In this document: piece by piece, positions 19,724 through 58,610 of the stretch
Position numbering within the stretch: position 1 is the stretch's first letter
Layout of the letters: the number at the start of each line of letters is the position of its first letter
DNA from: a virus
Length of the DNA: 64,000 nt
Virus record (IMG/VR): IMGVR_UViG_3300034063_000636
Coordinates: 44,215-108,214 of that record
Direction: 5' to 3' (one strand)
Position numbers and translations under genes: made by a program
Notes under the pieces: generated by a model
The model's input: the letters and a program-made list of their open reading frames with translations, nothing else
Databases searched by the model: none
Told to the model about the DNA's origin: nothing

Positions 19724-19752
19724 TTGAAATTTTTTATAGATTGTAGTATAAT
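19724..19752 (+). promoter_or_regulatory. Sigma70-type promoter
   Basis: TTGAAA (19724-29), 17 bp spacer, TATAAT (19747-52); then GGAG RBS and ATG at 19776. Confidence 0.75.
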
Positions 19753-19775
19753 GATTTAAATCTTGGAGTTATATT

Positions 19776-20366
19776 ATGCCATCATTCACAAAGTACATAA
19801 AACCACTTCCTCAGTTTTGTATTGTTGATAATTATTTCACTGAAGAAGAAGTCGATAAAATTATTGATCTTGAAGAATTGCAAGAATTCAGTGAGGGTAA
19901 GATGGGAACTGGTCCATCAACAACCACTAATAAACAATATCGCGACAGTGACATTTCTTGGTTGAAATGGAGCCCAGATTCTAGATGGATATTTGATAAA
20001 TTTGGTTCATTGATGGGTCAAGTAAACCACTCTCACTTCATGTATGATATTGATGGTTTTGATGCGTTTCAATACACCAAGTATAAACCAAAGCAACATT
20101 ATAATTGGCACTTTGATGCCTTCACAGAATTTCATGGCTTCGAACGAAAGATTAGTGCAGTGGTAATTTTATCAGACCCCAAAAAATATTCTGGTGGAGA
20201 ATTTCAAATTGTTGCGGATGGAAATATAGAAAAACCGCACTCAATAAAACCACCAAAAGGTTCTGTAATATTCTTTGCTTCTTGGATGCCGCATAGAGTT
20301 GCGCCAGTTAAATCTGGAGTTCGTAAATCTTTGGTTGCTTGGATTATGGGTAAAAGAGTATGCTAA
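19776..20366 (+). CDS. 2OG-Fe(II) oxygenase, prolyl-4-hydroxylase-like
   Basis: HYNWHFD (HxD), RKIS.V..LSDP..Y.GGEF and MPHRVAPVKSGVRKSLVAW (distal His, 2OG-binding Arg). Confidence 0.88.
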   Translation: MPSFTKYIKPLPQFCIVDNYFTEEEVDKIIDLEELQEFSEGKMGTGPSTTTNKQYRDSDISWLKWSPDSRWIFDKFGSLMGQVNHSHFMYDIDGFDAFQYTKYKPKQHYNWHFDAFTEFHGFERKISAVVILSDPKKYSGGEFQIVADGNIEKPHSIKPPKGSVIFFASWMPHRVAPVKSGVRKSLVAWIMGKRVC

Positions 20367-21088
20367 ACAAATTGATTCGTGTTTTTAAAAATGATGTGAT
20401 TGAATTTTACTGTCACCCAAAGTTTGAGAATGTCATTCCTGAACCAAAGCCAGCAATCAAATATTTGCCTGAGTGGTTTAGAATTATTCCTCCAGTTTCA
20501 AAGACTCGGAGAGATGAATACAATGACTTTGCGATGAATGCTAAAAAGTGTTTCCCAATGATTGATGCAATGTCTTTGGGATATACAATACCATTGTGTG
20601 GTGATATTCATGTCATGGTCAATAACGATATGACAGAAATGAAGTATACAAGCCCACCAGAAATGAAATTGGCAGATAGCCATAACGTTGAACAAATTGG
20701 TGGAGAGTCAGCCCCAGGATTTCCAATCAATCCGATCAAGTTTATCAATTATTGGATTATTAAGACTGCTCCAGGCTGGTCGACATTGTTTATTCCTCCA
20801 ATTAATCATGTTGGAACTCCATTTACTTGTTTGGGTGGATTAGTTGACACTGATAGATATCCAAAGGAAGTTAATTTTCCAGCAATTTGGAATCAGCCTG
20901 GTTTTGATGGATTAATTCGTGCAGGAACTCCTCTGGTGACTGCAATCCCAATTAAGAGAAATTCATTTCCGAAAAAACCAAAAGTCAGAAAAATTAAAGA
21001 TAAAGAATTTAATGAGATTGAATTGATTCGAAAGAAACAAGTGACCAGAAAAAATGTATACACAAATGAATTGAGAGATGAACGATGA
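20360..21088 (+). CDS. Hypothetical protein, possible degenerate dUTPase-like fold
   Basis: KKCFPMIDAMSLGY, GGLVDTDRY and IRAGTPLVTAIP; paralogous to the next gene. Confidence 0.55.
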   Translation: MLNKLIRVFKNDVIEFYCHPKFENVIPEPKPAIKYLPEWFRIIPPVSKTRRDEYNDFAMNAKKCFPMIDAMSLGYTIPLCGDIHVMVNNDMTEMKYTSPPEMKLADSHNVEQIGGESAPGFPINPIKFINYWIIKTAPGWSTLFIPPINHVGTPFTCLGGLVDTDRYPKEVNFPAIWNQPGFDGLIRAGTPLVTAIPIKRNSFPKKPKVRKIKDKEFNEIELIRKKQVTRKNVYTNELRDER

Positions 21089-21903
21089 AATTTTTTGATT
21101 TTTTTAAACCTAAAGAAACATTTAATGATTCGATTGACGATGAGATTAAGGAAATCTCAAACACTTCTGTTGTTCAATCGACTATTGGTAGAAACAAGTT
21201 AGAATTTATCGATTCATCAGAACTCGTATTTGCTAGTTTACCAATTCAATTAGCAAAAGATGTTCCTGTAAACTCGCAAGCACATGTAGAAAAGCTCGGA
21301 AATAAGTTCACATTTCCAGTCTGCCCTGGCATGTTTGACTATTCGCGACTTGGCTACATTGTTCCAGCCTGGTCAGACTATCATTTTAAGATAAATAAAG
21401 CTGGATGTGCTGCATTAGTTGGTGGGGGACAAAAAGCATCTCCATTTAAGCCTCCAGTTCCGATGGCAACTGATGTTGTCGATGGTCTTTTTAAATTAAG
21501 CGACGGAATTCCACTTAAAACATATAATATCAATTCTCCTTGGAAAATATTTTCTTACGACAAAGATATATCAGCATTACTTCTTCCTGCTTGGTATCAT
21601 GCAGACGTAGAGTTTTTAGATAATTTTTATGTTTATCCTGGAGTTGTTGATTATAATACATTTCATACTATGAATGTCATTCTTTCTCCAAAAAGAAAGT
21701 GTGAGTATACGATTAAAGCGGGAGATCCTTTATTACACGTCATTCCGTTTTATAATAAACAAATTGAATGTGGTTATGGACCACCAAACATAGAACAAAA
21801 AAGCATATTATCATACGATCCTAAAATCCACGAAACGCAATTTTATCGAAAGAATCATATGATTAAAAAGAGTTTCGCACTAGAAGAAAGCAATAAAGAA
21901 TGA
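21085..21903 (+). CDS. Hypothetical protein, paralog of 20360..21088
   Basis: CPGMFDYSRLGY, PGVVDYN and IKAGDPLLHVIP align with the motifs of the upstream gene. Confidence 0.55.
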   Translation: MKFFDFFKPKETFNDSIDDEIKEISNTSVVQSTIGRNKLEFIDSSELVFASLPIQLAKDVPVNSQAHVEKLGNKFTFPVCPGMFDYSRLGYIVPAWSDYHFKINKAGCAALVGGGQKASPFKPPVPMATDVVDGLFKLSDGIPLKTYNINSPWKIFSYDKDISALLLPAWYHADVEFLDNFYVYPGVVDYNTFHTMNVILSPKRKCEYTIKAGDPLLHVIPFYNKQIECGYGPPNIEQKSILSYDPKIHETQFYRKNHMIKKSFALEESNKE

Positions 21904-22847
21904 AGATATTTGTAAGCATATGCTCATACAGAGACCCTCTGTTAGTATACACTCTAAAAGCATTAATGCAGACCAAGTCTGCAATTACAGAAGTTGTGTA
22001 CGGCATATTTGAACAAAATGAAAAAGAAAATAGTTTAGAAACTCTATTTCCAGATCTAGTCGCCAGAAGCGATGTAAAATATAAACGAATCGATCCACAA
22101 TACTCGGAAGGTGTTGGTTGGGCTCGAAATATTAATGCTCTCCAGTTAACTGACGAGGATTTTTATTATCAGATCGACTCTCACATGGTTTTCGATAAGA
22201 ATTGGGATCGCGATTTAATTAACGATTATAAAGAAGGCTGTAGAGCGATCGAGTCAAACAGAGTCATTATCAGTTCGAACTGTAAAAATTTCGAGATGGT
22301 CGATGGTAATGTCGTTTTAGAGCATGGCATGGACTATACATGCAGAGCAAGATTCTATCAGTTTAATCCAAATCTTTGGCTTTTTGCTCACGGCGAACAT
22401 ATTCCTCCAACTGAAACCGTGATGCCAGCGATACACATCTTTGCTGGAAATATGTTTACACACTCTGATTGGGTTCGAAATGTCGGAATCAATCCTAGAA
22501 TATTCTTTCATGGAGAGGAGCAAGCGATAACTCTCTCATCGTTTGCTGCAGGATATCGATTTTTCCACGGAAAGAGGATGTCGTGCTATCACTATAAAGG
22601 ATCTAATGAACATACATCAAAGCAGGACTTTAAACCTGTTGTTCCTTTAGAGATCATTGAAGAGAGAAAACGTAGATCAGAAATTGAATTTAGAGCATTT
22701 TTAGACTCTCTCGAGGACGATTTACTCGAGGAATACCGAGTCTACTCTGGCGTGAATTATATAAATAAGAAAATAGAAGAACGTGCCATAACCCGAGTGA
22801 TTAAACCAAGCATCGATATTGACTGGGAAGTAGGCGATTCTGAATAA
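21900..22847 (+). CDS. GlcNAc transferase, Gnt1/GT60-like (Skp1-hydroxyproline GlcNAc transferase family)
   Basis: IFVSICSYRDP, GVGWAR, YYQIDSHMVFDKNWD and FFHGEE match family motifs (IFVSIxSYRD, QIDSHMxF..WD, FxGEE). Confidence 0.85.
   Translation: MKIFVSICSYRDPLLVYTLKALMQTKSAITEVVYGIFEQNEKENSLETLFPDLVARSDVKYKRIDPQYSEGVGWARNINALQLTDEDFYYQIDSHMVFDKNWDRDLINDYKEGCRAIESNRVIISSNCKNFEMVDGNVVLEHGMDYTCRARFYQFNPNLWLFAHGEHIPPTETVMPAIHIFAGNMFTHSDWVRNVGINPRIFFHGEEQAITLSSFAAGYRFFHGKRMSCYHYKGSNEHTSKQDFKPVVPLEIIEERKRRSEIEFRAFLDSLEDDLLEEYRVYSGVNYINKKIEERAITRVIKPSIDIDWEVGDSE
22760..22767 (+). promoter_or_regulatory. Canonical T4 late promoter TATAAATA
   Basis: Exact TATAAATA inside the 3' end of the GT gene, about 105 bp upstream of the next structural gene. 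Confidence 0.6.
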
Positions 22848-22872
22848 AAAACATAGTTCATAGAGAATTTTC

Positions 22873-30662: not shown

Positions 30663-31157
30663 ATGCCAACAACATTACAATTTAGACGTTATGGAACTGC
30701 AGCCACTGCATCAGTTACTGGTGCAAATGGTGAATTGACGATTGATACTGATAAAGAAACAGTCGTCGTTCATGACGGATCCACGGCTGGTGGGTATGCG
30801 CTCGTAAGAGATGGCGCTGCAACGATCAGCGACACGTTCGGAAATCTTCGTGGAATTCCGATTTCTGGTTCAGAAAAATCTACCAGTTATACGCTCGCTG
30901 CAAATGATGTTGGTCGTTTGGTGATCGTAACAACTAGCGGAAGCATTACAGTTCCGAACACCACATTTGGTGGTGGTAATGTTGTTTCAGTTTACAATAA
31001 CACAAGCAGCAACGTTGTGCTTACATTGAGCACTGCGGCAGCATATGTTTCTGGCAATAATACAAATAGAACATCTCTTAATCTAGCAACTCGCGGCATT
31101 GCAACAGTTCTTTATATTAGTTCAAATTCTTGCGTAATTACAGGAAGCGTATCATAA
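30663..31157 (+). CDS. Short tail fibre protein with Mtd-N-like N-terminal domain
   Basis: LQFRRYGTA...GANGELTIDTDKETVVVHDG.TAGG. Confidence 0.75.
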   Translation: MPTTLQFRRYGTAATASVTGANGELTIDTDKETVVVHDGSTAGGYALVRDGAATISDTFGNLRGIPISGSEKSTSYTLAANDVGRLVIVTTSGSITVPNTTFGGGNVVSVYNNTSSNVVLTLSTAAAYVSGNNTNRTSLNLATRGIATVLYISSNSCVITGSVS

Positions 31158-33017: not shown

Positions 33018-33344
33018 ATGGCAGAAAGATATAAAATTCTAGGACAAGTGGCTGGAACAACTGCGTTTGCAAATGTCTACACAGTTCCAGCAGCAACATC
33101 AACAGTAGTCTCATCAATTATTGTCACGAATCGATCTTCTTCAAATACGAATTATAGAATCGCAGTGCTTCCTGCAGGTGCTGCTGTTGCAAATCAATAT
33201 TATATTGCCTATGATTCTGTAATTGCAGGAAGCGATGCGATTGGTTTATCACTTGGATTAACTCTTGGCAACACTGATGTGATCACTGTAAATGCATCTT
33301 CAAATGTAATCACGTTCAGCGTGTTCGGAACAGAAATTACCTAA
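33018..33344 (+). CDS. Adaptor-like small beta protein
   Basis: YKILGQ...VYTVPAAT.TVVSSI.VTNR...LGLTLGNTDVI...FGTEIT; close paralog of 38905..39231. Confidence 0.75.
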   Translation: MAERYKILGQVAGTTAFANVYTVPAATSTVVSSIIVTNRSSSNTNYRIAVLPAGAAVANQYYIAYDSVIAGSDAIGLSLGLTLGNTDVITVNASSNVITFSVFGTEIT

Positions 33345-44953: not shown

Positions 44954-44956
44954 ATA
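44950..44956 (+). promoter_or_regulatory. T4-type late promoter box
   Basis: ATAAATA overlapping the stop codon, upstream of 44990. Confidence 0.5.
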
Positions 44957-44989
44957 GTTTCTTTAATATGTAATTGGGAGTATAATTGT

Positions 44990-45247
44990 ATGACTGACAA
45001 AATTTATCGTATGTATGGAATTAATACTGCAGTTGAACTCTTGCGTCCAGGCGCAAAGTGGGAATGGACTGGTGGCGTAGGTTTCTCTCGTTGGGAAGAT
45101 CCAAGACCAGTTCCTACAAAAGAAGAAGTCGAAGAGACAATGGAAAAGATCAAAGCATTTGAAGATTCCATTAATACAGTATGGACCGAGGAACAAATCA
45201 AAGAGATCCGCGGATATGAACAACAAATACAGGATGCTACAACTTGA
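44990..45247 (+). CDS. Small hypothetical protein (possible fibre assembly factor)
   Basis: GGAG RBS; AVELLRPGAKW...WED.RP.PT.EE pattern. Confidence 0.6.
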   Translation: MTDKIYRMYGINTAVELLRPGAKWEWTGGVGFSRWEDPRPVPTKEEVEETMEKIKAFEDSINTVWTEEQIKEIRGYEQQIQDATT

Positions 45248-45852
45248 ATATTTTTACATTATTTCCAACAGCAGTCGGTAAGTTTCAATTAGATAGAGAA
45301 TTAACAAAGCAAGAATTAAAGTTTATTGCTGATGCAGAACGTCGTCCAAATATGGGCAATCAAACAAGCGTAAACAATTACGTCTTGAAAGAAAAGCCTT
45401 TAAAGAAACTTGGCGATTTTCTACTTGAGTCAGCAAATAAATACTTGACTGAGATATACAAACCAAGAGATGATGTGAAACTATATATCACTCAATCTTG
45501 GTTGAATTATACTGAGAAAGGCGGCTATCATCACAAGCATGCACATCCGAATAGTTTTGTTTCTGGTGTGTTTTATGTAAATGCTGATGTCACCAAAGAT
45601 AAGATCTTTTTTTATGGTAATGAGCAGTACAAACAAATTAAGTTAGATCCAATCGAATTTAATTTGTATAATTCTGAATCATGGTGGTTAGAGGTAGGTG
45701 TGGGAGTATTATATCTTTTCCCATCTTCTTTGACTCACATGGTTGAGACTGTTCAGCATGAGGAAACGAGGATTAGTTTATCCTTCAATACTTTTTTGAA
45801 GGGAACTATTGGTAGTAATCACAATTTAACAGAGTTATTGATAGAGGAATAA
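45244..45852 (+). CDS. Putative 2OG-Fe(II) oxygenase (TIGR02466-like)
   Basis: WLN......HHKHAHPNS.VSGVFY...LFPS.LTH.V......RISLSFN. Confidence 0.82.
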   Translation: MNIFTLFPTAVGKFQLDRELTKQELKFIADAERRPNMGNQTSVNNYVLKEKPLKKLGDFLLESANKYLTEIYKPRDDVKLYITQSWLNYTEKGGYHHKHAHPNSFVSGVFYVNADVTKDKIFFYGNEQYKQIKLDPIEFNLYNSESWWLEVGVGVLYLFPSSLTHMVETVQHEETRISLSFNTFLKGTIGSNHNLTELLIEE

Positions 45853-45854
45853 AA

Positions 45855-46226
45855 ATGGCACACTTTGCAGAATTAGACGCAAATAATGTTGTTTTACGAG
45901 TCATCGTTGTAGGAAATGCAGACACATCAGATGCCAGCGGTGTTGAAAAGGAACACATTGGCGCTGCTTTCTGCGAAAAACTATTTGGTGGCACTTGGAA
46001 GAAAACATCTTACAACGGTAACATTCGCAAGCGTTATGCTGGCGTTGGCTACACATACAATGCTGATCTAGACGCTTTCGTCCCACCAAAGCCATATGCT
46101 TCATGGACTTTGAACAACACCACTGCTGATTGGGAAGCACCAGTCGCAATGCCTGTTGAAGAAGGCAAAATGTTCTCATGGAACGAAGAAACAGGCGCAT
46201 GGGTTGAAACTCCAGGCATGGTCTAA
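45855..46226 (+). CDS. Phage hypothetical protein (possible fibre assembly chaperone)
   Basis: MAHFAELD.NNVV.RVIVV...WKKTSYN...RKRYAG.G.TY....DAF..PKPY.SW; strong GAGG RBS. Confidence 0.65.
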   Translation: MAHFAELDANNVVLRVIVVGNADTSDASGVEKEHIGAAFCEKLFGGTWKKTSYNGNIRKRYAGVGYTYNADLDAFVPPKPYASWTLNNTTADWEAPVAMPVEEGKMFSWNEETGAWVETPGMV

Positions 46227-46243
46227 AATAGGAAGTATTCGTT

Positions 46244-46819
46244 ATGATGTCAATGAACGTGAAAGATTATGTGAAAATCTATGATGATTTTCTTGATAAG
46301 AAACTATGTAAAGCAGTTGCCAAGAAGTTAAAGAAAGCTGATTGGCAACTGCATACATTTTATCAAGCAACCACTGGCGAATTTATTAGTTACGATAAAG
46401 AACTCTCGATTTCTTATGGTAAAGATCTAGAAGAAACTCAAGAGATTCAGAAGAAAATTTGGTTTGCGATTGAGCAATATGTGATGAAAGATCATGCGCA
46501 TATGGCTGATTGGTTTAGTGGTTGGAATGGTTATACTCAGGTTCGATATAATCGTTATAACACTGACACGCAAATGAAATTGCACTGTGATCATATTCAT
46601 AGTATGTTTGACGGAACACGAAAAGGTATTCCGACTCTTTCTATTCTAGGATCGTTAAACGATGATTATGAAGGCGGTGAGTTAGTATTTTGGGAAAGCG
46701 AAGCGATTCATCTCAAAGCAGGATCGATTATGATTTTCCCAAGTAACTTTATGTATCCGCATAAGGTTATGCCTGTGACAAAGGGAACAAGATATTCATA
46801 TGTCTCATGGGCATGGTAA
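46244..46819 (+). CDS. 2OG-Fe(II) oxygenase, prolyl-4-hydroxylase-like
   Basis: HCD (HxD), LNDDYEGGEL and FPSNFMYPHKV.PVTKGTRYS. Confidence 0.87.
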   Translation: MMSMNVKDYVKIYDDFLDKKLCKAVAKKLKKADWQLHTFYQATTGEFISYDKELSISYGKDLEETQEIQKKIWFAIEQYVMKDHAHMADWFSGWNGYTQVRYNRYNTDTQMKLHCDHIHSMFDGTRKGIPTLSILGSLNDDYEGGELVFWESEAIHLKAGSIMIFPSNFMYPHKVMPVTKGTRYSYVSWAW

Positions 46820-46830
46820 AATACAAGTAG

Positions 46831-47223
46831 ATGGCAGACAAACTTCACGGTCGAGCAATTCAAACTAATTCGATTCCTGTCGATAGAATAGTGCCAGGGA
46901 CAATTACTCTTGATCAATGCGACGCCACGATTGATAACTATGTCAACGATGGTGGTCGACCTTTTATAAGATCTATTAGTTACTTCGGTTCAAATACAAC
47001 AGCTGCAACTAGCGGTGGTCAAACTGTTCGATTGACAGGCAGCAATTTCGCAGCGAACATCCAGATTTATGTAAACACTTCTGCTGCCCCTGCAGTCTCC
47101 AGAACTAATGCCAATTCCGTTTCCTTTACAACTCCAGGAAACGAAGCAGGAACTTATTTGGTTTATGCTATTAATCCTGATGGAGGATTTGCGATTCTAG
47201 TGCCTGGAATTGTTTATGCATAA
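46831..47223 (+). CDS. IPT/TIG-like domain protein; short paralog of the next gene's N-terminus
   Basis: Colinear with aa 1-131 of 47250..51818 (MADKL.G.AI...GTYLVY.IN..GG.AILVPGI.Y). Confidence 0.8.
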   Translation: MADKLHGRAIQTNSIPVDRIVPGTITLDQCDATIDNYVNDGGRPFIRSISYFGSNTTAATSGGQTVRLTGSNFAANIQIYVNTSAAPAVSRTNANSVSFTTPGNEAGTYLVYAINPDGGFAILVPGIVYA

Positions 47224-47226
47224 ATA
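47220..47226 (+). promoter_or_regulatory. T4-type late promoter box
   Basis: ATAAATA overlapping the stop codon, upstream of 47250. Confidence 0.55.
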
Positions 47227-47249
47227 AAGAAAAATCATAGGATTTTCGA

Positions 47250-50200
47250 ATGGCAGACAAATTAGACGGCGGTGCAATTGTAGCCAATACAATTCCTGGC
47301 ACAAAAATCCAATCTGGCACAATCACAACGACGCAGTTAGATCCTGCAATTGCTGCTGCTGTTACCGTACCATTACATCCTAAAATTTCTTCGATCACTT
47401 ATCCTGGGAATGATACTGCTGCAAACACAGGCGGCGGTGATTCGATTGTCATCAATGGTTCTGGATTCGGAACTAACGTTCAGGTCTATATCAACGGAAC
47501 TGCTGCTCCGTCAGTAACTCGCAACAATGCGAATGCAGTCACAATTACAACTGCTGCTCAATCTGCTGGAACTTATCTAGTCTATTTGATCAACACCGAT
47601 GACGGCGGTACTGCTATTCTTGTTCCTGGTATTCAGTATTCTGGAATGCCAACATGGGTTACAACATCACCACTTACTGGTCAAGAAGCAGCTGTTGCTT
47701 GGAGCATTTCACTCTCAGCAACAGGTGATTCACCAATTACTTATGCACTACAAGCAGGAAGCTCGTTACCTGCTGGAATTACATTGGCTGCAAATGGATT
47801 AATCAGCGGTACAATGACCTCTCCGCCAGAAAGCGACACAACATATAATTTTACAGTACTTGCAACCGACCCACAATCCCAAGACACACCTAAAGCATTT
47901 AGTGTTTCTGTAACTGTTGTTGTTGATCCGCAGTTTCAATACACGACTTTGTTATTACAAGCTGACGGAACAAACAACGGCAACAATCATGCGTTTTTAG
48001 ATTCTAGCAATAATAATTTCACGATTACTCGAAATGGAAACGCAACTCAAGGTTCGTTCACGCCATTCAGTCCGACTGGGTGGAGTAATTATTTTGATGG
48101 AACGGGAGATTATTTGACATGGAGTGGATCCACACTTTCTGGAGATTTTACAGTTGAATGTTGGGTTTTCAAAACTGCTGTAGATGCGAGTGGATACACA
48201 AATGTGTTTTCAGGTTCTAATGGCAATCATCAGTTATTCATAGACGCTACAACAGCGGGATCAATAGGGCTCGTAATCGGAGCATCTACAATAATTGCTG
48301 GAAGCGGTGTTGCTGTTACTCCTAATATGTGGCATCATTTGGCATGGGTTAGAGAAGGATCTACTTGTCGCGTTTATGTAGACGGAATTCAACAGGGAAC
48401 TGGATCAAGTTCAACCTCATTTGCATTAGGTGTGATTGGTCGATATTATGAAGGCGGATATGAAATGAATGGATACATTTCTAACGCCCGTATTGTTGCT
48501 GGAACTTGTTTATATCCAAGTGGAACTACATTCACACCACCAACATCACCATTGACTGCTGTTTCTAACACCGCATTGTTAACATGCCAGAGCAATCGTT
48601 TTCGCGACGCAAGCACCAATAATTTTGCAATCACACGCAATGGCGATGTTTCTGTTCAAACCTTCTCTCCATTCGCAACAACTACTGCATATTCACCAGC
48701 AACACATGGCGGGTCAGCATTCTTTGATGGGAGTGGGGATTATCTTGAAACCACTAGTTCTCAAATCATTCCTAGCGGAAACTTTACGATTGAGGCGTGG
48801 GCTTACATAACAAACAGTAGTTCCACGCAAACCATCGTTGCACAAGGGACTGGCGTAGGCGATGGCGCACGAACATGGATGGGAATTGAAAACAGCAGCG
48901 GTGCAAAGTGGGCTGTTCAAGTAGGTGGGACACAGGCTATCAGCAGCGTTACGCCAGTTTTAAACGCATGGCATTACCTTGCTATGGTTTACAGCGGATC
49001 AACCATAAAGATGTACCTAAACGGTACAGAAATAGCCTCAGCCTCTTCAACAACAAACGCATCAAATACGACGCTAAAGATTGGAACTAACTGGGGCGGT
49101 TACATTACGACTGGATTTTTATCCAATATCCGTATTTCTAACACCGCAAGAACAATTAGCGCAGTCCCGTCATCGTTGTTGGCGGCAGATGCAAATACAG
49201 TTTTTCTTGCCAATTTCACCAACGCACAAATTTATGATGCAGCAGCAGGAGCTGTTCTTGAATGTATTGGCGATGCGAAAGTCAACACAGCGATCAAGAA
49301 GTATGGCGCAGGATCAATTACGTTTGATGGAAATGGAGATTATTTGATAACGAATGCGCCTTCTACAGAAACAACCAATCTTGGATCTGGTGACTTTACT
49401 GTAGAATTGTGGGTTTACTTTAATGGTGTATCTTCAGTTCAAACATTTGTTGATTGGCGTGATGCATCTACAGTTGCTGCATATCCTCTATTAGTGTTGA
49501 ACTCAGATGCAACCATACTTTGGTCTCATTCTAACAACACTAGAATTACCAGCTCTCCAATATCAGCAAATACATGGTATCATGTTGCGGTTTGTCGTGC
49601 TGGTGGACAAACTAAACTGTTTATTAATGGAACTCAAAGCGGGTCAACATATTCTGATTCTACAACATATCTTACCACTTCTGGTGCACCGAGAATTGGA
49701 ATCGATAGAAGAGCTGCACCATCTTATTACTTTAATGGTTACATCGATGATCTTCGTATCTCCAAAGGTCTTGCTCGTTATCGATACCCATTCACTCCAC
49801 CAACACGTGCATTTCCAACAAAGGGTGGAACAGCACCAGCAGCTACTGCTGATGAGTATTTTGACTATACAACACTGTTATTGCCAGGAAACGGAACGAA
49901 CAATCAAAACAACCATACATTCTTAGATTCTTCGAATAATAATTTTACTATCACAAGAAATGGCAATGCAACTCAAGGAACATTTAGTCCGTTCAGTCAA
50001 ACTGGATGGAGTAATTACTTTGATGGAAGCGGAGATCGCTTAACTGGAGCATCGCCAATACCAGGGCTTTCGTTTGGAACAGGCGATTTTACTACAGAAT
50101 ATTGGGTATATAAAACAAATTCTGGAGTCAATGCAGTCGTATTTGACGCCAGATCAAGCGCATCAGCTTCTCCTTGGGTATTGGCTATAGACACAAATAA

Positions 50201-51818: not shown

Positions 51819-51821
51819 ATA
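51815..51821 (+). promoter_or_regulatory. T4-type late promoter box
   Basis: ATAAATA overlapping the stop codon, upstream of 51842. Confidence 0.55.
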
Positions 51822-51841
51822 TCTAAAAACGGATCACTTCA

Positions 51842-52426
51842 ATGACAACAGTTGTATCTACTAAAATCGGCGGAACAAATCTCCAAACTATTGGAACTGC
51901 TGGTCAGGCTCTCAAAGTCAATTCAACTGGAACTGGGCTCGAATGGGGTTCGGTTGGTGGAGCAATCAACGTTGCTAACGAAATTACCACTAATAGTTCG
52001 GGTTACTATATTCTATTCACGAATGCAGCCTCTGGCAATATCACATCAACCAACGTTGCCACTTCGAAGTTATACTTTAATCCTAGTACTGGTACTGTAA
52101 GTGCAACGAATTTCAATTCTCTTTCTGATCTACAAGAAAAAGAAAACGTTGAGACGCTAAAAAATGCAGTAGAAATGCTTGCTAATATTCGTGGCGTTCG
52201 TTTCACATGGAAAGAAACAGGCGCACCATCTCTTGGTGTTATTGCTCAAGAATTATTACTAGTTGCACCAGAATTAGTTACACGCAACGAACAAGGTGTT
52301 CATACTGTAAACTATGCAGGTCTCAATGCTATTCTTATTGAAGCAATGAAAGATCTTCACTCACAAGTACAATTACTTCGCACTGAAATTGAGAATCTAA
52401 AGAATGGCAATTCTACAGGCGGGTAA
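51842..52426 (+). CDS. Mini tail fibre with C-terminal peptidase S74 (intramolecular chaperone) domain
   Basis: LSDLQEKENV (S-x4-K)...F.WK.....GVIAQE...PELV...VNY..L...LIEA.K, then a coiled coil. Confidence 0.85.
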   Translation: MTTVVSTKIGGTNLQTIGTAGQALKVNSTGTGLEWGSVGGAINVANEITTNSSGYYILFTNAASGNITSTNVATSKLYFNPSTGTVSATNFNSLSDLQEKENVETLKNAVEMLANIRGVRFTWKETGAPSLGVIAQELLLVAPELVTRNEQGVHTVNYAGLNAILIEAMKDLHSQVQLLRTEIENLKNGNSTGG

Positions 52427-54860
52427 CACAGTAGTTGGCGACGCAGGTAACGGCAATTTCAATGTAGTGTCTGTTACGAGTAATGGGTACATCGAAATCC
52501 CAGATACCACGCCATCCGTCAATGCAAATTCGAATTCTTTTATAACTCTCGGTGCTACTGGCGTCACAATTAATAACGCCATGTGGTCTTGGTGGATCAA
52601 GCCACTAGTCCTTCGCGACAAAAACGCATCCAATCATTGGACGTATGCTTGCTTCACACAATCTAATGGAGCGGTTGGCGTCTCTATTACCAATCATAAT
52701 ACTGCAAACACAACGCAGTATACAATTACACCAGCAAATACTTTCTCAAAAGACGATCACAATGCCAGCGCAGTTGTAACTGGCAATAACAAAGCCTATA
52801 TTTTTATTCAGGGTCGTACGGCAAATTCTGCAGTATTAAATACAAAAAATATGTTTTATATTGAATTTAATGAAGGCGAAAGTCCAGCAAATAAAAATCT
52901 TGTCAACGTAACTTTCTCGACTGCCCCAACAGCAACGGCATCGTTCTATCCAAACGCATTTAATGCCAACGGAAAGTTTATTTTATTGGGTCGTCAACAA
53001 GTTTTAAACACTGCGAATCAATGGCTGGCTGTAACTGGTGATTATCCTGTTGCGAATTTGTCGACGCCAAAAGGATTGTTTAAGTCAATTTACACTTGGC
53101 CATATTTTGCAATTAGAAGAAGTTACGAAGATAAAGATATTTTAAATTTTGCTCAGGGCTGGCATCCATACGATTCGACTTCCAATAATAACATTTACTT
53201 TGGTAAAATTCTTCGTAACGGAAACACTGCCCCATGGGATGTGTATGCGAATAATGCAGTCATCGGTAATCTAACTGATGGAACTGGATTGCCATTTGAC
53301 GAAGCAGACTTTGAATTAGTGTTCACCAATTCAGGGGCAAATAATTCTGTTCGTTTGTTTGACGTTCATGACGATGCTGTAGCATTCGGAACATTCAATA
53401 AACTTGTTAATATAATTCAATATAAAGTCGCATATAAAACAGGAAATACTTGGTATACAAAAACTGTTTGCACTGGTGGATATCCATTCCACGGTGTTCA
53501 AGTTCGTGACTATTATGGCGGCATGGCAATCTCTGAGAGAGACAAATACACTATCACAGTTGCCGCTGAAGTAAACAATCAATGGGATATTCGTGAATAC
53601 AAGAGCACCGACAGCGGCAATACTTGGATTTTAAACAATAGCACAAGAGCAGACATCTATCAAGTTGCTGGTCGTCCAATGGACGAAGTCTTATCTGAAG
53701 ATGCACATATCTATAACAGCACAGATCAACTTGGATCATTTAGTTGGTTCGGATCTTATGACGGTTCAGACTTCACCACATTTAGCACGAACGTTGCATC
53801 AACAAGATTAGTCGGAACAGGAAGACAAAATCCTACTATCGATGCAAATCAAAAAGGATTTTTCAGCACTGTAAACACACCTTCAAGTGGATATATTGAA
53901 GTCAGTTCAGTATCATTATCGCATGGCTATGCAAGCGGTGGACTCACACTCTTACCATTCCCAGCTCAGTCTGATCGTATCGATAAGTTTCCGTTTGCAT
54001 CAGATACAAATGCAACAACGATAGGTTATTTGTCGCAACAAATTAGAGGTGCAGCTGGCATATCATCAACAACAAATGGATATACTGCTGCTGGTCAGTT
54101 TGCTTCACCTGCGATTTTACCTGCAAATCAAACTTCTATTGGTAGAATTGAACGATTCCCATTTGCTGTAGACATTGGCTCAACCTATGTTGGCGAGCTT
54201 GTAACAAAAAGAGCTTTCCCTGCTGGTTCAGAATCTTCTACACATGGATATGCAAGCGGTGGTCAGACCAATTTGCCTGCATATCCACCAGTAACTTGGA
54301 CAGCTGCAATAGAAAAATTTCCATTTGCTGCTGAGTTTGCTGCTGCCACAACTGTGGGTAATTTGACAGTAGTGCGATTTGGTGCTATGGGTCAAAGTTC
54401 AAGCACTCACGGTTATGCTTCTGGTGGTGGAACGCCTCCACCTCCTGCTCTCGTCAATGTCGCAACAATTGATAAATTTCCATTTGCGACGGATACAAAT
54501 GCAACATTTGTTGGAGATTTGACTGAAGCGAGACGTGTTGGTGCTGGCACACAATCAACCACTCATGGGTATGCTTCTGGTGGTGGACACCCCGCAACTC
54601 CTACATTATACTCAAATGTCATTGACAGATTTCCATTCTCTAGCGACACAAATGCATCAGATGTGGGTGATCTAACTCAGGCTAGAAGAACAACTGGTAC
54701 AGGTTCTTCTTCAACAACTCATGGGTATACAGCTGGTGGCTCAGATTCACCAACTTATGGAAATGTTATAGATAAGTTTTTATTTGCTGCAAGCGCGAAT
54801 GCCACAGATGTTGGTGATTTAACTCAAGCAAGAATTGACCCTGCAGGTTCACAAGGCTAA
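52404..54860 (+). CDS. BNR/Asp-box domain fused to a six-bladed Kelch-like propeller
   Basis: DDHNAS, WPY and STDSGNTW (Asp-box); six GY..GG...I(D/E)(K/R)FPF...VG.LT..R repeats. Confidence 0.7.
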   Translation: MAILQAGNTVVGDAGNGNFNVVSVTSNGYIEIPDTTPSVNANSNSFITLGATGVTINNAMWSWWIKPLVLRDKNASNHWTYACFTQSNGAVGVSITNHNTANTTQYTITPANTFSKDDHNASAVVTGNNKAYIFIQGRTANSAVLNTKNMFYIEFNEGESPANKNLVNVTFSTAPTATASFYPNAFNANGKFILLGRQQVLNTANQWLAVTGDYPVANLSTPKGLFKSIYTWPYFAIRRSYEDKDILNFAQGWHPYDSTSNNNIYFGKILRNGNTAPWDVYANNAVIGNLTDGTGLPFDEADFELVFTNSGANNSVRLFDVHDDAVAFGTFNKLVNIIQYKVAYKTGNTWYTKTVCTGGYPFHGVQVRDYYGGMAISERDKYTITVAAEVNNQWDIREYKSTDSGNTWILNNSTRADIYQVAGRPMDEVLSEDAHIYNSTDQLGSFSWFGSYDGSDFTTFSTNVASTRLVGTGRQNPTIDANQKGFFSTVNTPSSGYIEVSSVSLSHGYASGGLTLLPFPAQSDRIDKFPFASDTNATTIGYLSQQIRGAAGISSTTNGYTAAGQFASPAILPANQTSIGRIERFPFAVDIGSTYVGELVTKRAFPAGSESSTHGYASGGQTNLPAYPPVTWTAAIEKFPFAAEFAAATTVGNLTVVRFGAMGQSSSTHGYASGGGTPPPPALVNVATIDKFPFATDTNATFVGDLTEARRVGAGTQSTTHGYASGGGHPATPTLYSNVIDRFPFSSDTNASDVGDLTQARRTTGTGSSSTTHGYTAGGSDSPTYGNVIDKFLFAASANATDVGDLTQARIDPAGSQG

Positions 54861-55948
54861 TGGCAATTACAATCAATAATATAACCGTTATCGATGATAG
54901 TTCAAATGCAAATTTGACGCAAGTGTCAATATCATCTTTAGGATATATGATCGCTGGTGCTGCGAATACAACACCACCGCATGCAGGAACATTATATGGA
55001 TATGCTTCTGCTGGAATTTATCCACTCAGATCTCCGCCGCCAGTATACAATCAAACAATTGAAAGATTTCCGTTTGCTACAGATACAAATGCAACATCAA
55101 TTGCAAGCGCGCAATTAAAAAGAAGAAGAGGTGGGTCTTGTTCTTCAGAATTAGCAGGTTATGCAGTTAGTGGGGACTCTACAACAGAATCTAGCCCACT
55201 CCCACCTCAAATGGGTTTAGCATATTACTTTAATATTGAAAAATTTAATTTTGCCACTGAAGCGCCATCAGCTGGCGTTGGTAATCTACAATTTGTTCGA
55301 GTCAATGGCGGTGTAGGTGTTGCATCGCCAACTCATGGATATGTTGGTGGGATGAAAATATATAATGAAGTCCCTGTCGACATTGAAAGATTTTCTTTTG
55401 CAAATGAAGCAGAAACAGCAATTATTGGTGGTATGACATATTATCGTCAGGGTCCATGTGAAGCAGCATCTTTAACTGATGGATACATTATGAATGGAAC
55501 ATTGTTAGGTTCTGGTCCACCAGCAACTATCTTGACAAATATAATTGAAAAGTATCGTTTTTCATCCGAAACAGATTCAGCTTTGGTTGGAGAAACAACA
55601 CGCGCAAGATGGCTTGTGATTGGAGCGTCTTCACCAACACATGGTTATGCAATGGGCGGGGTTGCAAATACTCCTGTTGTACGATATAGAACAATTGACA
55701 AAATGTCATTTGCAGCTGAGGGAACGTCAACTTATGTTGGTGATCTTTCATCAAATAACGCAAGTGCATGTTCATCATCTAGCGCAACGCATGGATATAT
55801 GCTTGGCGGCGCAACGAGCAATAATCCTCCAGCACCAGTGACAGCGACAAATGCAATTGATAAATTTCCTTTTGCTACTGATTCCAATGCTACTGATATT
55901 GGGGATTTGACAGAACCTAAATTCCAATCTAATGGGTTTATAAATTGA
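54860..55948 (+). CDS. Six-bladed Kelch-like propeller protein
   Basis: Six repeats of about 50 aa; N-terminus similar to that of 52404. Confidence 0.75.
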   Translation: MAITINNITVIDDSSNANLTQVSISSLGYMIAGAANTTPPHAGTLYGYASAGIYPLRSPPPVYNQTIERFPFATDTNATSIASAQLKRRRGGSCSSELAGYAVSGDSTTESSPLPPQMGLAYYFNIEKFNFATEAPSAGVGNLQFVRVNGGVGVASPTHGYVGGMKIYNEVPVDIERFSFANEAETAIIGGMTYYRQGPCEAASLTDGYIMNGTLLGSGPPATILTNIIEKYRFSSETDSALVGETTRARWLVIGASSPTHGYAMGGVANTPVVRYRTIDKMSFAAEGTSTYVGDLSSNNASACSSSSATHGYMLGGATSNNPPAPVTATNAIDKFPFATDSNATDIGDLTEPKFQSNGFIN

Positions 55949-55973
55949 TTTTTAGTTGACTTTTTGTTATAAT
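55945..55973 (+). promoter_or_regulatory. Sigma70-type promoter with extended -10
   Basis: TTGATT (55945-50), 17 bp spacer ending TGt, TATAAT (55968-73); upstream of ATG 55992. Confidence 0.75.
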
Positions 55974-55991
55974 ATAGTTTTTGGGTAAATA

Positions 55992-56819
55992 ATGAACAAA
56001 TTATTCTTCTGTGGCGGATTGCCTCGCACTGGTTCTACAGTGCTTATGAATATCCTGCAGCAAAATCCAAGAATATTTACAACAGGCACTTGTGCTTTGC
56101 CCGATCTCTTGCATCAGCAAGTTTTAATCAAGTCTCGTTATCGCGAGCAATTTCAAGCAATGAGTTTGGAGCAAGCCGATAAAGCCATGTACGGATTAAT
56201 TCATGGAGCAACGAAGGGATGGTTTGAAGCACTTACCAACAAACCTGTCGTAATATCCAAGAATCGTTCTTGGTCAAATCTATTTCATTTATATCCAGAT
56301 AGCAAGTATATTTGCATGGTTCGTGATCTTAGAGATATTATTGAGAGTTTCGAGAAAATAAATCAACGAACTCTTGCTCTTCATTCTTTTGCCGACGATA
56401 ATGCTCTTGTTCCTGCCATGTCTGAGTCTGAGAAGTTTGGGTATTATTTTAAATCATTAAATGTTTTGTCTGATGCATTAGCGAACGATGTTACTAGAAT
56501 GATGGATGTATTCAAGAAAAATCCATCTAAAGTTTTGTTTATTCGATTTGAAGATTTTACAAAAGATCCAATCTATATTCTTAAGAAAGTCTACAATCAT
56601 ATAGGCGAAGAATATTATTCACATGATTTAGAAAATATCAGTCAATCAGTTTTGTTCGAACATGATCATGCATATTTTAAAGAACGTGCTGATCATCAAA
56701 CTGCTCCATCTTTTCAATATTATAAAGAACCACAGAGAACATTTTCTACTCGCTTTCAACAGGAAGTTTTAAACAATTATAAATGGTTTTACGAAGGGTT
56801 TTATCCAGATGCATCCTAA
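55992..56819 (+). CDS. PAPS-dependent sulfotransferase
   Basis: 5'-PSB loop GLPRTGSTVL, 3'-PB motif MVRDLRDIIES and IRFEDF..DP. Confidence 0.87.
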   Translation: MNKLFFCGGLPRTGSTVLMNILQQNPRIFTTGTCALPDLLHQQVLIKSRYREQFQAMSLEQADKAMYGLIHGATKGWFEALTNKPVVISKNRSWSNLFHLYPDSKYICMVRDLRDIIESFEKINQRTLALHSFADDNALVPAMSESEKFGYYFKSLNVLSDALANDVTRMMDVFKKNPSKVLFIRFEDFTKDPIYILKKVYNHIGEEYYSHDLENISQSVLFEHDHAYFKERADHQTAPSFQYYKEPQRTFSTRFQQEVLNNYKWFYEGFYPDAS

Positions 56820-57372
56820 TCAACACAATATTTTTTCTGTTCCTATTTGGGGATATATAATTAATAGCGAGAAATATCACTCGAGCGATTATCTAGATTT
56901 AATTTCACATCTAGAAGAAACAGAGCCATCTAAAAAGAAAAGTAATTTTGGTGGGTGGCAATCTAGAAGTGATCTTCATAAAGAAGGATTGTTCCAAGAG
57001 TTTAAAAAGGTTATATTAATTCTTGCAAATGATATTGCTAAATCGCAAGACCTACCAGAATTACATTTAATCAGTATGTGGGCGAACATAAATTACAAAC
57101 ATTCATTTAACGCAGCGCATACACACGAAGGAATATTATCTGGTGTGTTTTATTTGAAGACTCCACCCAACTGCGGCAAATTAATACTCGAGAGCCCAGC
57201 AGTAAGAGCCGATACTAGTCCATATAAAATTAGAAATTATCCAGTTGAACCAAGCCCATTAAGTTGTATTATATTTCCAAGTTGGCTTTCGCATTATGTT
57301 GAACCAAATATGAGTGATGAGAAGAGAATTAGTTTGAGTTTTAATTTTGATATTAAGAGAGAAATATCATGA
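56809..57372 (+). CDS. Putative 2OG-Fe(II) oxygenase (TIGR02466-like)
   Basis: WANIN....N..HTH....SGVFY...FPSWL.H.V.PN.S...RISLSFN. Confidence 0.82.
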   Translation: MHPNQHNIFSVPIWGYIINSEKYHSSDYLDLISHLEETEPSKKKSNFGGWQSRSDLHKEGLFQEFKKVILILANDIAKSQDLPELHLISMWANINYKHSFNAAHTHEGILSGVFYLKTPPNCGKLILESPAVRADTSPYKIRNYPVEPSPLSCIIFPSWLSHYVEPNMSDEKRISLSFNFDIKREIS

Positions 57373-58610
57373 GTGTAAAAGAGCATTTCGATAATAACGG
57401 ATTTGTAATCCTATCTAATGTCTTGCCAAAAGAAAATTGTGAACAATTAGTCACTTACATGTTTGATCTTCTCAAGCAGGGTAAACTTGTGAAAGACGAG
57501 CAATGCCCACTGAGTGACTCTGTTTATGGAGATCCCACATTCGATGAACTATTGCAAAGATTTGCCAAGCCGATTGGTGATCATCTAGGCAAAACTCTTC
57601 TCCCAACATATACCTATGCTCGAATCTATCGAACTGGCGAGGTACTGAAAAAACATAAAGATCGTCCAGCCTGTGAGATTAGCGCGACCATGACGCTTGG
57701 ATTCGACGCTAAACATCTTTGGAAGATCTTCTTTGATGAAGAAAAAGAGATTCCAGTCGATCTTGATATTGGAGAGATGGCAGTTTATGCTGGATGCGAT
57801 ATCTTACATTGGCGTCCAGCGTTTAAAGGTAACTGGCACATTCAAGTATTCTTTCATTATGTTGATGCGAATGGTCCATATGCATCTCATGCAAAAGATG
57901 GTCGTGAGAAGTTTGGTGTAGATAAAGTCAAAAATGTTCTTCCCAAAACAGAGAAGCAAGACTTTAAGTTTCCAAAACCGATATTCAATACCATTATTAT
58001 TCCGAGCACTTTAGATAATACTTTTCCTGGATATTATCCGATCAACAGTCAAAACATTCCAGAGTTAAAGTTTACTGATAAAGAATGCGATACGATACTT
58101 AAAATGCTCAACGATGCATATCCATCGACAGCAGGTGTTGGTGGATCGAAAGAAAATAGTCGTATTTCTAGAGGTATTCGCTCAGCCAATATCTATATCC
58201 TAGAAAACGACGAAGAAAACCATTGGATCTTTCAGAAAGTCGCAAACATTGTATCGTTTGCGAATGAACATCATTTTCAATACGATTTAACTGGAATCAC
58301 TCATGGAATTCAGTTAATTGAATATTCCTCTGACTTCGACGTTAAGGGTCATTACGATTGGCACGTTGATGCTGGAAATGGTGAGCCAGTGACTCGAAAG
58401 ATCTCTTTCACGGCTCAATTAAGCGATCCCAGTGAATATGAGGGGTGCGAGTTAGTTATAAATAATCATGGAACAGAAGTCGTTGCAACCAAAGAGAGAG
58501 GTTCGGTTCATTTGTTCCCAAGTTATATGACGCATAAAGTGACTCCGATTACGAAAGGAAATCGTTATGCATTAGTCATTTGGATTCATGGATCTAGGAG
58601 ATTTAGATGA
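57369..58610 (+). CDS. Tandem two-domain 2OG-Fe(II) oxygenase
   Basis: Domain 1: YARIY...LKKHKDRPACEIS...LHWR. Domain 2: HYDWHVD..RKIS..QLSDP..YEG...HKVTPITKG.R. Confidence 0.85.
   Translation: MSVKEHFDNNGFVILSNVLPKENCEQLVTYMFDLLKQGKLVKDEQCPLSDSVYGDPTFDELLQRFAKPIGDHLGKTLLPTYTYARIYRTGEVLKKHKDRPACEISATMTLGFDAKHLWKIFFDEEKEIPVDLDIGEMAVYAGCDILHWRPAFKGNWHIQVFFHYVDANGPYASHAKDGREKFGVDKVKNVLPKTEKQDFKFPKPIFNTIIIPSTLDNTFPGYYPINSQNIPELKFTDKECDTILKMLNDAYPSTAGVGGSKENSRISRGIRSANIYILENDEENHWIFQKVANIVSFANEHHFQYDLTGITHGIQLIEYSSDFDVKGHYDWHVDAGNGEPVTRKISFTAQLSDPSEYEGCELVINNHGTEVVATKERGSVHLFPSYMTHKVTPITKGNRYALVIWIHGSRRFR

Follow-up and report, generated by a model that had tools for sequence, protein, structure and literature searches.

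Organization of the oxygenase region

The stretch of DNA analyzed here, referred to as the window, is the final 64 kb (64,000 nucleotides) of the 108,214-bp IMG/VR contig IMGVR_UViG_3300034063_000636, and it encodes, among genes for fibers and adhesins, five 2-oxoglutarate (2OG)- and Fe(II)-dependent oxygenases, which we named OX1 to OX5. Few accessory genes are as numerous in T4-like aquatic phages as those for 2OG-Fe(II) oxygenases. Four of those described here, all except OX3, kept a partnership with one particular adhesin family while the surrounding genes changed. The contig, approximately 63% complete, encodes T4-type replication and baseplate proteins (gp32, gp59, gp5, gp25, gp6, and gp8), its gp6 being nearest to those of Methylophilales phage Melnitz (41.6% identity) and Pelagibacter phage Mosig (40.8%). 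All credible genes of the window from 2.4 kb onward lie on the plus strand, as do all the window features described below, and constitute a baseplate, fiber, and adhesin module. Comparison of the 44- to 60-kb segment with phage records by megablast gave no match.

The five oxygenase open reading frames (ORFs) bear out an earlier note, made without database searches, that had placed six 2OG-Fe(II) domains in five genes. Five of the domains exceeded their profile cutoffs, scoring 49 to 77 bits against a Pfam cutoff of 27, and the sixth, the N-terminal half of OX5, was recognized by the double-stranded β-helix (DSBH) fold of a structural model and by invariant residues (see below); the metal triad and a basic 2OG-binding residue were present. 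All the oxygenase matches of the contig fell between 19.7 and 58.6 kb of the window, and none was found outside this interval when the 103 proteins (37 + 66) of the incomplete contig were scanned with Pfam and its six frames were searched for PF13640, PF13759, PF05721, and the OX5 N-terminal domain. The oxygenase blocks also contain tailoring-type genes, namely, two of the DUF6065/phrog_7084 family, one for a PF11397 glycosyltransferase, and one for a sulfotransferase, and the ORFs overlap inside each enzyme operon.

A search for the T4 late-promoter motif TATAAATA gave no signal (2 matches versus 2.98 expected), and the terminator and sigma-70-like scans of the region were not above shuffled sequences overall. 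The best sigma-70-like matches of their respective regions are located in the gaps ahead of OX1 (19724..19752) and of the sulfotransferase gene (55945-55973), which hints at separate promoters for the enzyme operons. The match before OX1 (TTGAAA-17-TATAAT, 11/12, in a gap of 54 nt), the best one between 16 and 24 kb, was taken as a lead only, since the total number of matches did not exceed that of the shuffles.

Loci encoding related oxygenases were gathered by similarity from related viral contigs in IMG/VR (individual loci are designated by L numbers), and their genes were labeled according to the best blastp match (E ≤ 1e-5) to the proteins of the window. Alignments A1 and A3 were too diverse for locus scans, and the smaller alignments A2 and A4 were used instead.

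Association of OX1 with a proline-rich repeat fiber

The first block begins with HAIRPIN (17772..19721), a repeat fiber of 649 amino acids (aa) whose sequence and composition make it the proposed substrate of the block. It contains 19% Pro and 17% Thr, is built from approximately 24 repeats of the type ASYNTVPGNxNPTNYPYTP, and includes 31 PG dipeptides versus 19.1 expected. Directly after it lies OX1 (19776..20366), a PF13640 oxygenase of the prolyl 4-hydroxylase (P4H)/PKHD type (Pfam 1.4e-18, 68.1 bits) whose metal triad, H112, D114, and H173, was conserved in 33 sequences. Its nearest solved sequences were PKHD hydroxylases, the Pseudomonas EF-Tu prolyl hydroxylase, and the P4H of PBCV-1 (5c5t, E 6.3e-05).

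The ORF of OX1 is overlapped by that of DUF6065a (phrog_7084; 20360..21088). In the model of this protein (predicted local distance difference test score [pLDDT], 89.3), the top 11 rows of the VIA fold comparison were all dUTPases, the best being 3h6x (Z 10.4, root mean square deviation [rmsd] 3.4, 120 residues aligned), while the Foldseek match reached only E 1.5e-03 and the Pfam DUF6065 score (22.8 bits) was under the cutoff of 26.6. According to the model, the fold is dUTPase-like, with a match to the trimeric dUTPases. The same fold ruled out DUF6065 proteins as carriers of extra oxygenase domains. DUF6065b (21085..21903; phrog_7084, 2.1e-17), a paralog aligned with DUF6065a in alignment A7, comes next, and both proteins (20360-21903) fit the consensus GxVDTDxY, which we take to resemble dUTPase motif III. 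The block ends with a glycosyltransferase gene of the PF11397 "GlcNAc" family (21900..22847; Pfam 8e-32, 111.5 bits).

The scan of IMG/VR with OX1 yielded 61 loci, in 60 of which the focal OX1 was located, forming 13 clusters at 90% identity. A hairpin homolog lay directly upstream of OX1, and DUF6065a was next downstream, in 12 of the 13 clusters; DUF6065b and the glycosyltransferase gene then followed in all 10 cluster representatives whose locus extends far enough. The 13th cluster (34% identity) is located in an oxygenase-only island. The resulting six-gene unit, consisting of genes for a TF347-like protein, hairpin, OX1, DUF6065a, DUF6065b, and glycosyltransferase, was found in at least three settings: after DUF4815/p949, as in the window; upstream of a head-tail adaptor; and between baseplate genes (L052 and L055-L058). 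The hairpin homologs of 11 cluster representatives share an N-terminal domain and contain 9.9 to 16.1% Pro, with 17 to 29 PG dipeptides in 8 of them and 5 in the remaining three.

In the reverse test, anchored on the hairpin N terminus, OX1 was present in 12 of the 13 loci having downstream DNA. Only 5 of the 14 contigs in this test were new with respect to the OX1 set, and of these, three had the cassette, one was truncated, and one (L245) lacked it. The hairpin-family protein at L245:7980-9908 has long PPPPPPPEPPPP-type tracts and, at the C-terminal end, a poly-Gly run. DUF6065/phrog_7084 genes also recur beside PF13640-type oxygenase genes outside the hairpin cassette (L020, L197, L202, L204, and L219), and this recurrence suggests an oxygenase-dUTPase-fold pair.

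A glycine-rich adhesin module with OX2

The Gly-rich series is headed by a gene for an Mtd_N-domain protein (30663..31157; PF18454, 2.1e-09), which is found again ahead of the Gly-rich gene in OX2 loci. Five Gly_rich_2 (PF21722) adhesin genes follow between 31159 and 44953: 31159-32829 (1.6e-39), 33346-35718 (3.9e-73), 37782-38675 (2.7e-4, under the cutoff), 39231-41789 (1.5e-72), and 42326-44953 (2.9e-64). The adhesins contain approximately 34% Gly, and the genes for a 670-aa protein and for small phrog_1276 proteins are interleaved in the series. The phrog_1276 genes (33018-33344, 38905-39231, and 41994-42329; 108 to 111 aa) stand directly before three of the Gly-rich genes; elsewhere they also occur beside Gly-rich, propeller, and p670-like genes (L303, L304, and L313), resembling a fiber-specific accessory or chaperone. 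The earlier note had remarked on an abundance of SP, GP, and PS dipeptides in the variable loops of these adhesins: SP plus PS were indeed enriched in four of the five proteins (10 to 18 versus 4.3 to 9.0 in shuffles), whereas GP plus PG were depleted.

Between the last Gly-rich gene and OX2 lies p85 (phrog_21526; 44990..45247), a small conserved gene. OX2 (45244..45852) belongs to PF13759/TIGR02466 (Pfam 1.2e-21, 77.4 bits; NCBIfam 68.8 bits), and residues H96, H97, H99, H101, H165, and R176 were invariant in 20 sequences, an HxH motif replacing HxD. Its sequence matched two solved structures, 3bvc (E 4e-06) and 2rg4 (E 1e-05). Downstream is p123 (phrog_7759; 45855..46226), which the conservation of its neighborhood marks as a companion of Gly-rich and fiber genes.

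The OX2 loci comprised the best 80 of 196 candidates, with 52 to 58% identity and forming 14 clusters at 90%. Their gene order was Mtd_N protein, Gly_rich_2 protein, p85, OX2, and p123. Among these best 80, a Gly-rich gene was encoded at most two genes upstream of OX2 in all 65 loci with at least 1.5 kb of upstream sequence (13/13 clusters), compared with a background of 80/1090 for other genes of the same loci, and p123 was found at most two genes downstream in 56 of 77. Outside the module, the adjoining gene came from at least 11 different families on the upstream side (46 loci) and from at least 23 on the downstream side (66 loci). One locus (L089) had two tandem modules with one OX2 each. 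DSL-LC04, a metagenome-assembled phage of 61.5 kb outside the T4-like group, has the gene order given above, with a LamG protein next in line, as in the window; its authors, in the consulted part of their report, read its oxygenase (ORF78) as an auxiliary metabolic gene (PMC10611076).

When 185,579 species genomes were scanned with the single OX2 protein, no relative was found; the scan of the same genomes with the OX2 alignment recovered 11 close relatives, all on contigs of metagenome-assembled genomes, 6 of them with p85, p123, or Mtd_N-like neighbors. In loci anchored on the Gly-rich gene, p123 was present in 31 of 42. It is the steadiest companion of Gly-rich and other fiber genes, exceeding any oxygenase, and falls in virus-only clusters without annotation.

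Propeller arrays enclosing the OX4-OX5 operon

In the third block, two propeller genes (phrog_19111; 52404..55948) precede the enzyme operon, and three further genes of the propeller family (335, 340, and 343 aa; alignment A3; 59984..63041) follow it. The propeller proteins consist of six or seven repeats of approximately 48 residues (IDKFPFAxDxNATxVGxL...R...GxSSxTxGYxSGG) with Pro-containing loops; in their nearest named Atlas clusters, Kelch motifs occurred in 18 to 22% of members, which is a lead only. D-x-N-A-T is kept in every blade (alignment A3; 52404-63041) and presumably matches D/E-x-N-x-S/T, the extended sequon for bacterial N-glycosylation. It could be such a sequon or, equally, a structural Asn ladder or a site of Asn/Asp hydroxylation.

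The operon opens with a sulfotransferase gene (55992..56819; PF13469, 3e-18), whose LPRTGST and RDLRD..ES motifs, conserved in 18 sequences, we take to be those binding 3'-phosphoadenosine 5'-phosphosulfate (PAPS). No PAPS synthetase was found by Pfam scans of the 103 contig proteins. OX4 (56809..57372) is a second PF13759/TIGR02466 oxygenase (Pfam 3.8e-19, 69.4 bits; TIGR02466 90.4 bits), with the same HxH-type ligand pattern as OX2, read by eye in its single sequence.

OX5 (57369..58610) has two DSBH domains. The PF13640 match (49.4 bits) covers residues 324 to 407 of the C-terminal domain (residues 218 to 413); the N-terminal domain (residues 1 to 175) had no Pfam match, and its identification as PhyH was discarded, as PF05721 did not match either. 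In 30 homologs from related loci, H96, D98, and H147 were invariant in the N-terminal half, and H332, D334, H389, and R399 were invariant in the C-terminal half. In the AlphaFold model (pLDDT 87.8), residues 1 to 175 aligned with 2OG oxygenases and prolyl hydroxylases at Z 16 to 17, the best match being 6n1f (Z 17.1, rmsd 2.3, 162 residues aligned). On the strength of this alignment and of the three invariant residues, the modeled N-terminal half is a genuine DSBH domain. The best match of the C-terminal domain was 2y33 (Z 16.4, rmsd 3.0, 172 residues aligned), with PHD2 and PiuC at Z 16. Both domains are closest in fold to protein prolyl hydroxylases (Pseudomonas P4H, Dictyostelium PhyA, PHD2, and Tpa1/OGFOD1), and the label "ferrochelatase" given to the OX5 family in PHROG and GenBank was not borne out by the fold. 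Two conserved companions of OX5 in propeller-anchored loci, p306 and p109, complete the operon (58607..59857).

Direct scans with OX4 and OX5 found four carriers, all with the sulfotransferase, OX4, OX5, p306, and p109 genes nested between propeller paralogs. Among 59 propeller-anchored loci, OX5 was the most frequent gene of the operon (36 loci, 35 of them with two domains), ahead of p306 (31), p109 (29), OX4 (24), and the sulfotransferase gene (22). In all, 39 of the 59 had one or more of these five genes; in 16 of the 20 that had none, the sequence stops within about 900 nt of the array. Two others of the 20 (L254 and L265) have a single propeller gene beside an adaptor, the contig of L254 having the operon elsewhere (L255). 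The gene order of the operon varied, for example, OX5-p109-x-x-OX4 or sulfotransferase-OX5-p109-p306, and therefore the association with propellers survives rearrangement.

Specificity of the oxygenase-adhesin pairs

The specificity of pairing was counted over 300 distinct oxygenase proteins from all the fetched loci, grouped at a minimum of 45% identity to an oxygenase of the window. A hairpin neighbor was present for 22 of 26 OX1-like proteins and a Gly-rich neighbor for 53 of 66 OX2-like proteins, and propeller neighbors accompanied 13 of 18 OX4-like and 20 of 25 OX5-like proteins. Pairing of an oxygenase group with the adhesin of another group was not observed once among these relatives. 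Counted by locus, Gly-rich and propeller genes were absent from the 61 OX1 loci, hairpin and propeller genes from the 80 OX2 loci, and OX2 from the 58 new propeller loci.

The oxygenase-adhesin sets thus behave as mobile modules, because both the flanking genes and the internal gene order vary. Their recurrence over different contexts and phage types favors a function coupled to that of the neighboring virion gene over a generic role in auxiliary metabolism. An auxiliary metabolic gene would be located among metabolic or host-takeover genes and have no fixed structural partner; this description did not fit OX1, OX2, OX4, or OX5 and is compatible with OX3. The association of oxygenase subfamilies with adhesin types that the earlier note had anticipated therefore holds for four genes and fails for the fifth, and its proposal of dedicated tailoring enzymes in place of metabolic genes agrees with the conserved partnerships of those four, OX3 being unlinked.

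Proposed mechanism

Our preferred reading, held with moderate confidence, is that the window contains three mobile modules of adhesins and tailoring enzymes plus one unlinked oxygenase and that the enzymes hydroxylate the neighboring adhesins. The region offers the gene content, the folds, the intact catalytic motifs, and the group-specific partnerships that persist as the surroundings change. The adhesin as substrate, the residue modified, and the order of the reactions are what we infer: judging from context, fold, and catalytic motifs, each oxygenase would hydroxylate the adhesin it travels with. The kinship with P4H/PHD enzymes consists in fold and sequence likeness to PHD2, Pseudomonas P4H, PhyA, and vCPH, with NCBIfam equivalog scores under the cutoff.

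In module 1 (17.8 to 22.8 kb), OX1 would hydroxylate residues, most plausibly prolines, of the Pro-rich fiber encoded just upstream, and the polypeptide-type PF11397 glycosyltransferase might then put a sugar on the new hydroxyl or on Thr. The two dUTPase-fold DUF6065 proteins would assist, possibly in some uridine-nucleotide-related step. The Pro-rich repeats, which often contain X-Pro-Gly, are the obvious candidate target in this module, and Thr would be the alternative acceptor of the transferase. In module 2 (approximately 42.3 to 46.2 kb), the TIGR02466-type OX2, flanked by p85 and p123, would modify Gly_rich_2 adhesins. In module 3 (52.4 to 63.0 kb), OX4 and the two-domain OX5 would hydroxylate the Kelch-like propellers that surround them, the sulfotransferase would sulfate the hydroxylated product, and p306 and p109 would be accessory.

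Exceptions and unlinked oxygenases

Several observations weigh against this mechanism or limit its reach. The loci share descent and were picked by similarity, so that the counts are biased, and the contig itself is incomplete. The hairpin locus L245 has the glycosyltransferase gene without OX1 or DUF6065, and its proteins are still Pro rich and contain PG; for this reason, the covariation of the target motif with the presence of the enzyme is uninformative. OX2-like genes were found in 6 of the 42 Gly-rich-anchored loci, and any oxygenase gene was found in 17; modules with the Gly-rich gene, p85, and p123 but without OX2 exist (L310 and L313), and four of the five Gly-rich genes of the window have no adjacent oxygenase gene. 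Given this weak reverse association and the modules devoid of it, OX2 is an optional accessory for a subset of Gly-rich adhesins. Some propeller arrays also lack the operon, L286 and L303 being clear negatives.

The chemistry is likewise less evident in two of the modules. The Pro contents of the Gly-rich (3.8 to 5.7%) and propeller proteins are close to the contig mean of 4.08%, so that a prolyl target is not evident, and Asn, Asp, Lys, or Ser/Thr-proximal chemistry is therefore as likely as prolyl hydroxylation. The PF13759/TIGR02466 family has solved structures and no known substrate or function. For the PF13640 domains, the nearest solved relatives include PiuC/YbiX-type proteins, and a literature search on the function of PiuC found nothing.

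OX3 (46244..46819; PF13640, 2.4e-14, 54.5 bits) departs from the pattern altogether. Its four closest orthologs (82, 82, 72, and 63% identity) are found near ribonucleotide reductase, with a u5300-like gene on one side and u5940/u6281-like genes on the other; in the contig of the window itself, the u5300 and u5940/u6281 genes abut with no oxygenase gene between them. Of 38 relatives at least 45% identical to OX3, 36 had no adhesin neighbor, and in three loci (L107, L148, and L150) OX3 was inserted within the OX2 module. OX3 reads as a movable cargo gene with a role other than adhesin tailoring. More generally, oxygenase relatives below 45% identity were mostly unlinked to adhesins, and an OX2 relative (42% identical) in cyanophage S-B64 adjoins psbA/psbD.

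The statement of the earlier note that each adhesin class is followed by its own oxygenase block was overstated, since no conserved oxygenase partner exists for the 2470-aa fiber, the 1522-aa LamG protein, or the 670-aa protein. Oxygenase genes do follow the hairpin gene and the Gly-rich series; the third block is enclosed by the propeller array rather than placed behind it.

In some viral contigs (L062/L063, L312, L331, and L162), five to seven oxygenase genes from mixed subfamilies stand in a row, forming islands beside p123-like and fiber-like genes. Such islands recall the ten-gene dioxygenase array of cyanophage Syn9 described in the part of Iyer et al. 2010 consulted. In the cultured Pelagibacter podophage HTVC023P (L357, record 43038-47988), four oxygenase genes (gp65-67 and gp71) are interleaved with a "putative tail protein," four paralogs of 443 to 491 aa, and a glycosyltransferase, which makes this phage a possible experimental system. 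Upstream of the window, at contig positions 9793-12297 (L001), a full-length TonB-dependent receptor (Plug plus β-barrel) is encoded, an unusual phage cargo.

Alternative explanations

The best-surviving alternative keeps the enzymes tied to the adhesins but gives them another target, such as an envelope glycan or receptor of the host or a small molecule or a nucleotide sugar that adsorption requires, or makes them fiber assembly factors. The same conserved neighborhoods would suit a shared function of whatever kind, the dUTPase fold of the DUF6065 partners is a nucleotide-binding one, each enzyme operon has its own promoter-like site, and p85, p123, p306, and p109, with no enzymatic signature, persist where the oxygenase is absent. 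Yet the strictly conserved metal and 2OG ligands speak against a role that is purely structural, the nearest folds are those of protein hydroxylases, and a polypeptide-type glycosyltransferase and a sulfotransferase suit protein tailoring; we consider this alternative unlikely.

The oxygenases could, instead, be ordinary accessory or auxiliary metabolic cargo, concerned with 2OG and nitrogen signaling or with repair and piled up in a hyperplastic tail-fiber region, where adjacency would result from insertion hot spots and shared descent. This is the standard published reading: in the sections available of Sullivan 2010 (PMC3037559), of the S-SCSM1 (PMC9602691), DSL-LC04 (ORF78; PMC10611076), and Melnitz reports, and of the pelagimyophage survey, phage 2OG oxygenases are assigned to 2OG/nitrogen modulation, repair, or nucleic acid modification, with the function stated to be untested. 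The exclusive pairing of each ortholog group, with zero cross-pairs, its persistence over unrelated flanks, rearranged operon orders, and different phage types, and the co-conservation of the glycosyltransferase and the sulfotransferase with the oxygenases make it quite unlikely, even though OX3 orthologs move between loci, distant relatives are found among photosynthesis or replication genes, and oxygenase-only islands exist (L062/L063, L312, and L331).

A role in nucleic acid modification, with the oxygenases working as AlkB-like repair enzymes or as TET/JBP-like base hydroxylases and the glycosyltransferase acting on DNA bases, is very improbable: although ALKBH and TET chains appear among the fold matches (Z 13 to 15), the dUTPase-fold partners would fit nucleotide chemistry, and pelagimyophage papers, in the portions consulted, list such genes under DNA functions, Pfam and NCBIfam place the domains in P4H/PKHD-type families and TIGR02466, not AlkB or TET, the best fold matches are protein prolyl hydroxylases, the glycosyltransferase is from a polypeptide-type family, and all the genes lie in the tail-fiber module on the same strand with overlapping ORFs.

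Returning to adhesin hydroxylation by the neighboring oxygenases, the neighborhood statistics yield three concrete and directly testable enzyme-substrate pairs. If the proposal is true, phage-encoded enzymes hydroxylate, glycosylate, or sulfate phage receptor-binding proteins, the adhesin sequence by itself would not suffice to predict host range, many genes called auxiliary metabolic in viromes would have to be reannotated, and tailed phages would join giant viruses in tailoring their own virion proteins. As a tentative generalization, possible rather than probable, aquatic tailed phages may swap receptor-binding proteins as cassettes with their own tailoring (hydroxyproline/Thr O-glycosylation, Gly-rich hydroxylase, and propeller hydroxylation-sulfation), a sizeable share of phage 2OG-Fe(II) oxygenases might be virion-protein hydroxylases, and the adhesins might bear a chemical surface code affecting host recognition.

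Comparison with known systems

The cyanophage 2OG-Fe(II) oxygenases, in the part of Sullivan 2010 (PMC3037559) consulted, belong to the same families, PF13640 and PF13759, and show the same multiplicity in T4-like aquatic phages. Unlike the ortholog groups of the window, these relatives (30 to 42% identity) are not bound to adhesins. A 2026 preprint (10.64898/2026.10.08.757702), in its available portion, reports that 2OG-Fe(II) oxygenase genes of cyanophages S-RIM4 and S-RIM8 were mutated after coevolution with the host. OX2 and OX4 score above the TIGR02466 cutoff, and what sets the phage groups apart from the solved TIGR02466/PF13759 proteins (3bvc and 2rg4) is their link to Gly-rich adhesins or to propellers.

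The top Foldseek matches of OX5 (E 1.5e-10) were Tpa1/OGFOD1, ribosomal protein prolyl hydroxylases with two DSBH domains in tandem, as in OX5. Only single domains superpose, because the two-domain rmsd was 15 to 20 Å. Both OX5 domains keep the HxD...H triad, whereas the second domain of Tpa1 is, we presume, noncatalytic.

The combination of a PF13640-type oxygenase and a PF11397 "GlcNAc" glycosyltransferase encoded together in module 1 recalls the Skp1 pathway of Dictyostelium and Toxoplasma, in which PhyA is followed by Gnt1; we take PF11397 to be the Gnt1 family. Dictyostelium PhyA (6t8m) was, moreover, among the best fold matches of the OX5 N-terminal domain (Z 16.4). In that pathway, as described in the sections consulted, hydroxylated Skp1 is the substrate of Gnt1, so that the prolyl hydroxylase creates the acceptor of the GlcNAc transferase (PMC3515798). 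The differences are considerable: a single proline (Pro143) is modified there, whereas the phage candidate is a 649-aa fiber with approximately 24 Pro-rich repeats; in the phage, two dUTPase-fold proteins are encoded between the oxygenase and the glycosyltransferase; and no equivalents of PgtA/AgtA were found, nor was any match to the Skp1 family found among the 103 contig proteins scanned. By analogy, module 1 would at most work like the Skp1 pathway and is not a member of it.

The collagen prolyl hydroxylase of the giant virus PBCV-1 (5c5t) and the lysyl hydroxylase/glycosyltransferase of mimivirus (6ax6) were also fold matches of OX5 (Z 15.5 and 14.4, respectively). Both are virus-encoded 2OG oxygenases thought to tailor repetitive structural proteins. 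The giant viruses differ in having eukaryotic hosts and collagen-like or PAPK repeats, while here the viruses are tailed phages, the proteins are hairpin, Gly_rich_2, and propeller, and there is one oxygenase group per adhesin family.

A literature search for phage tail-fiber hydroxylation or hydroxyproline glycosylation found no report, the nearest being Iyer et al. 2010 (PMC2938197). In the parts consulted, those authors took cyanophage dioxygenase arrays as secondary-metabolite genes and, for bacterial operons, predicted hydroxylation and then sulfation of co-encoded Gly-rich, collagen-like, or tail-collar proteins. Module 3 shares this logic, having dioxygenases (OX4 and OX5) and a sulfotransferase inside arrays of a co-encoded repetitive protein. 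The operons of Iyer et al. come from bacteria, frequently encode PAPS synthetase, and draw on β-hydroxylase, PhyH, or JmjC enzymes, whereas module 3 combines TIGR02466 and P4H-like enzymes with Kelch-like propellers. Oxygenase-based tailoring of repetitive structural proteins is thus a known idea, and its proposal for the adhesins of tailed phages is new in the literature found.

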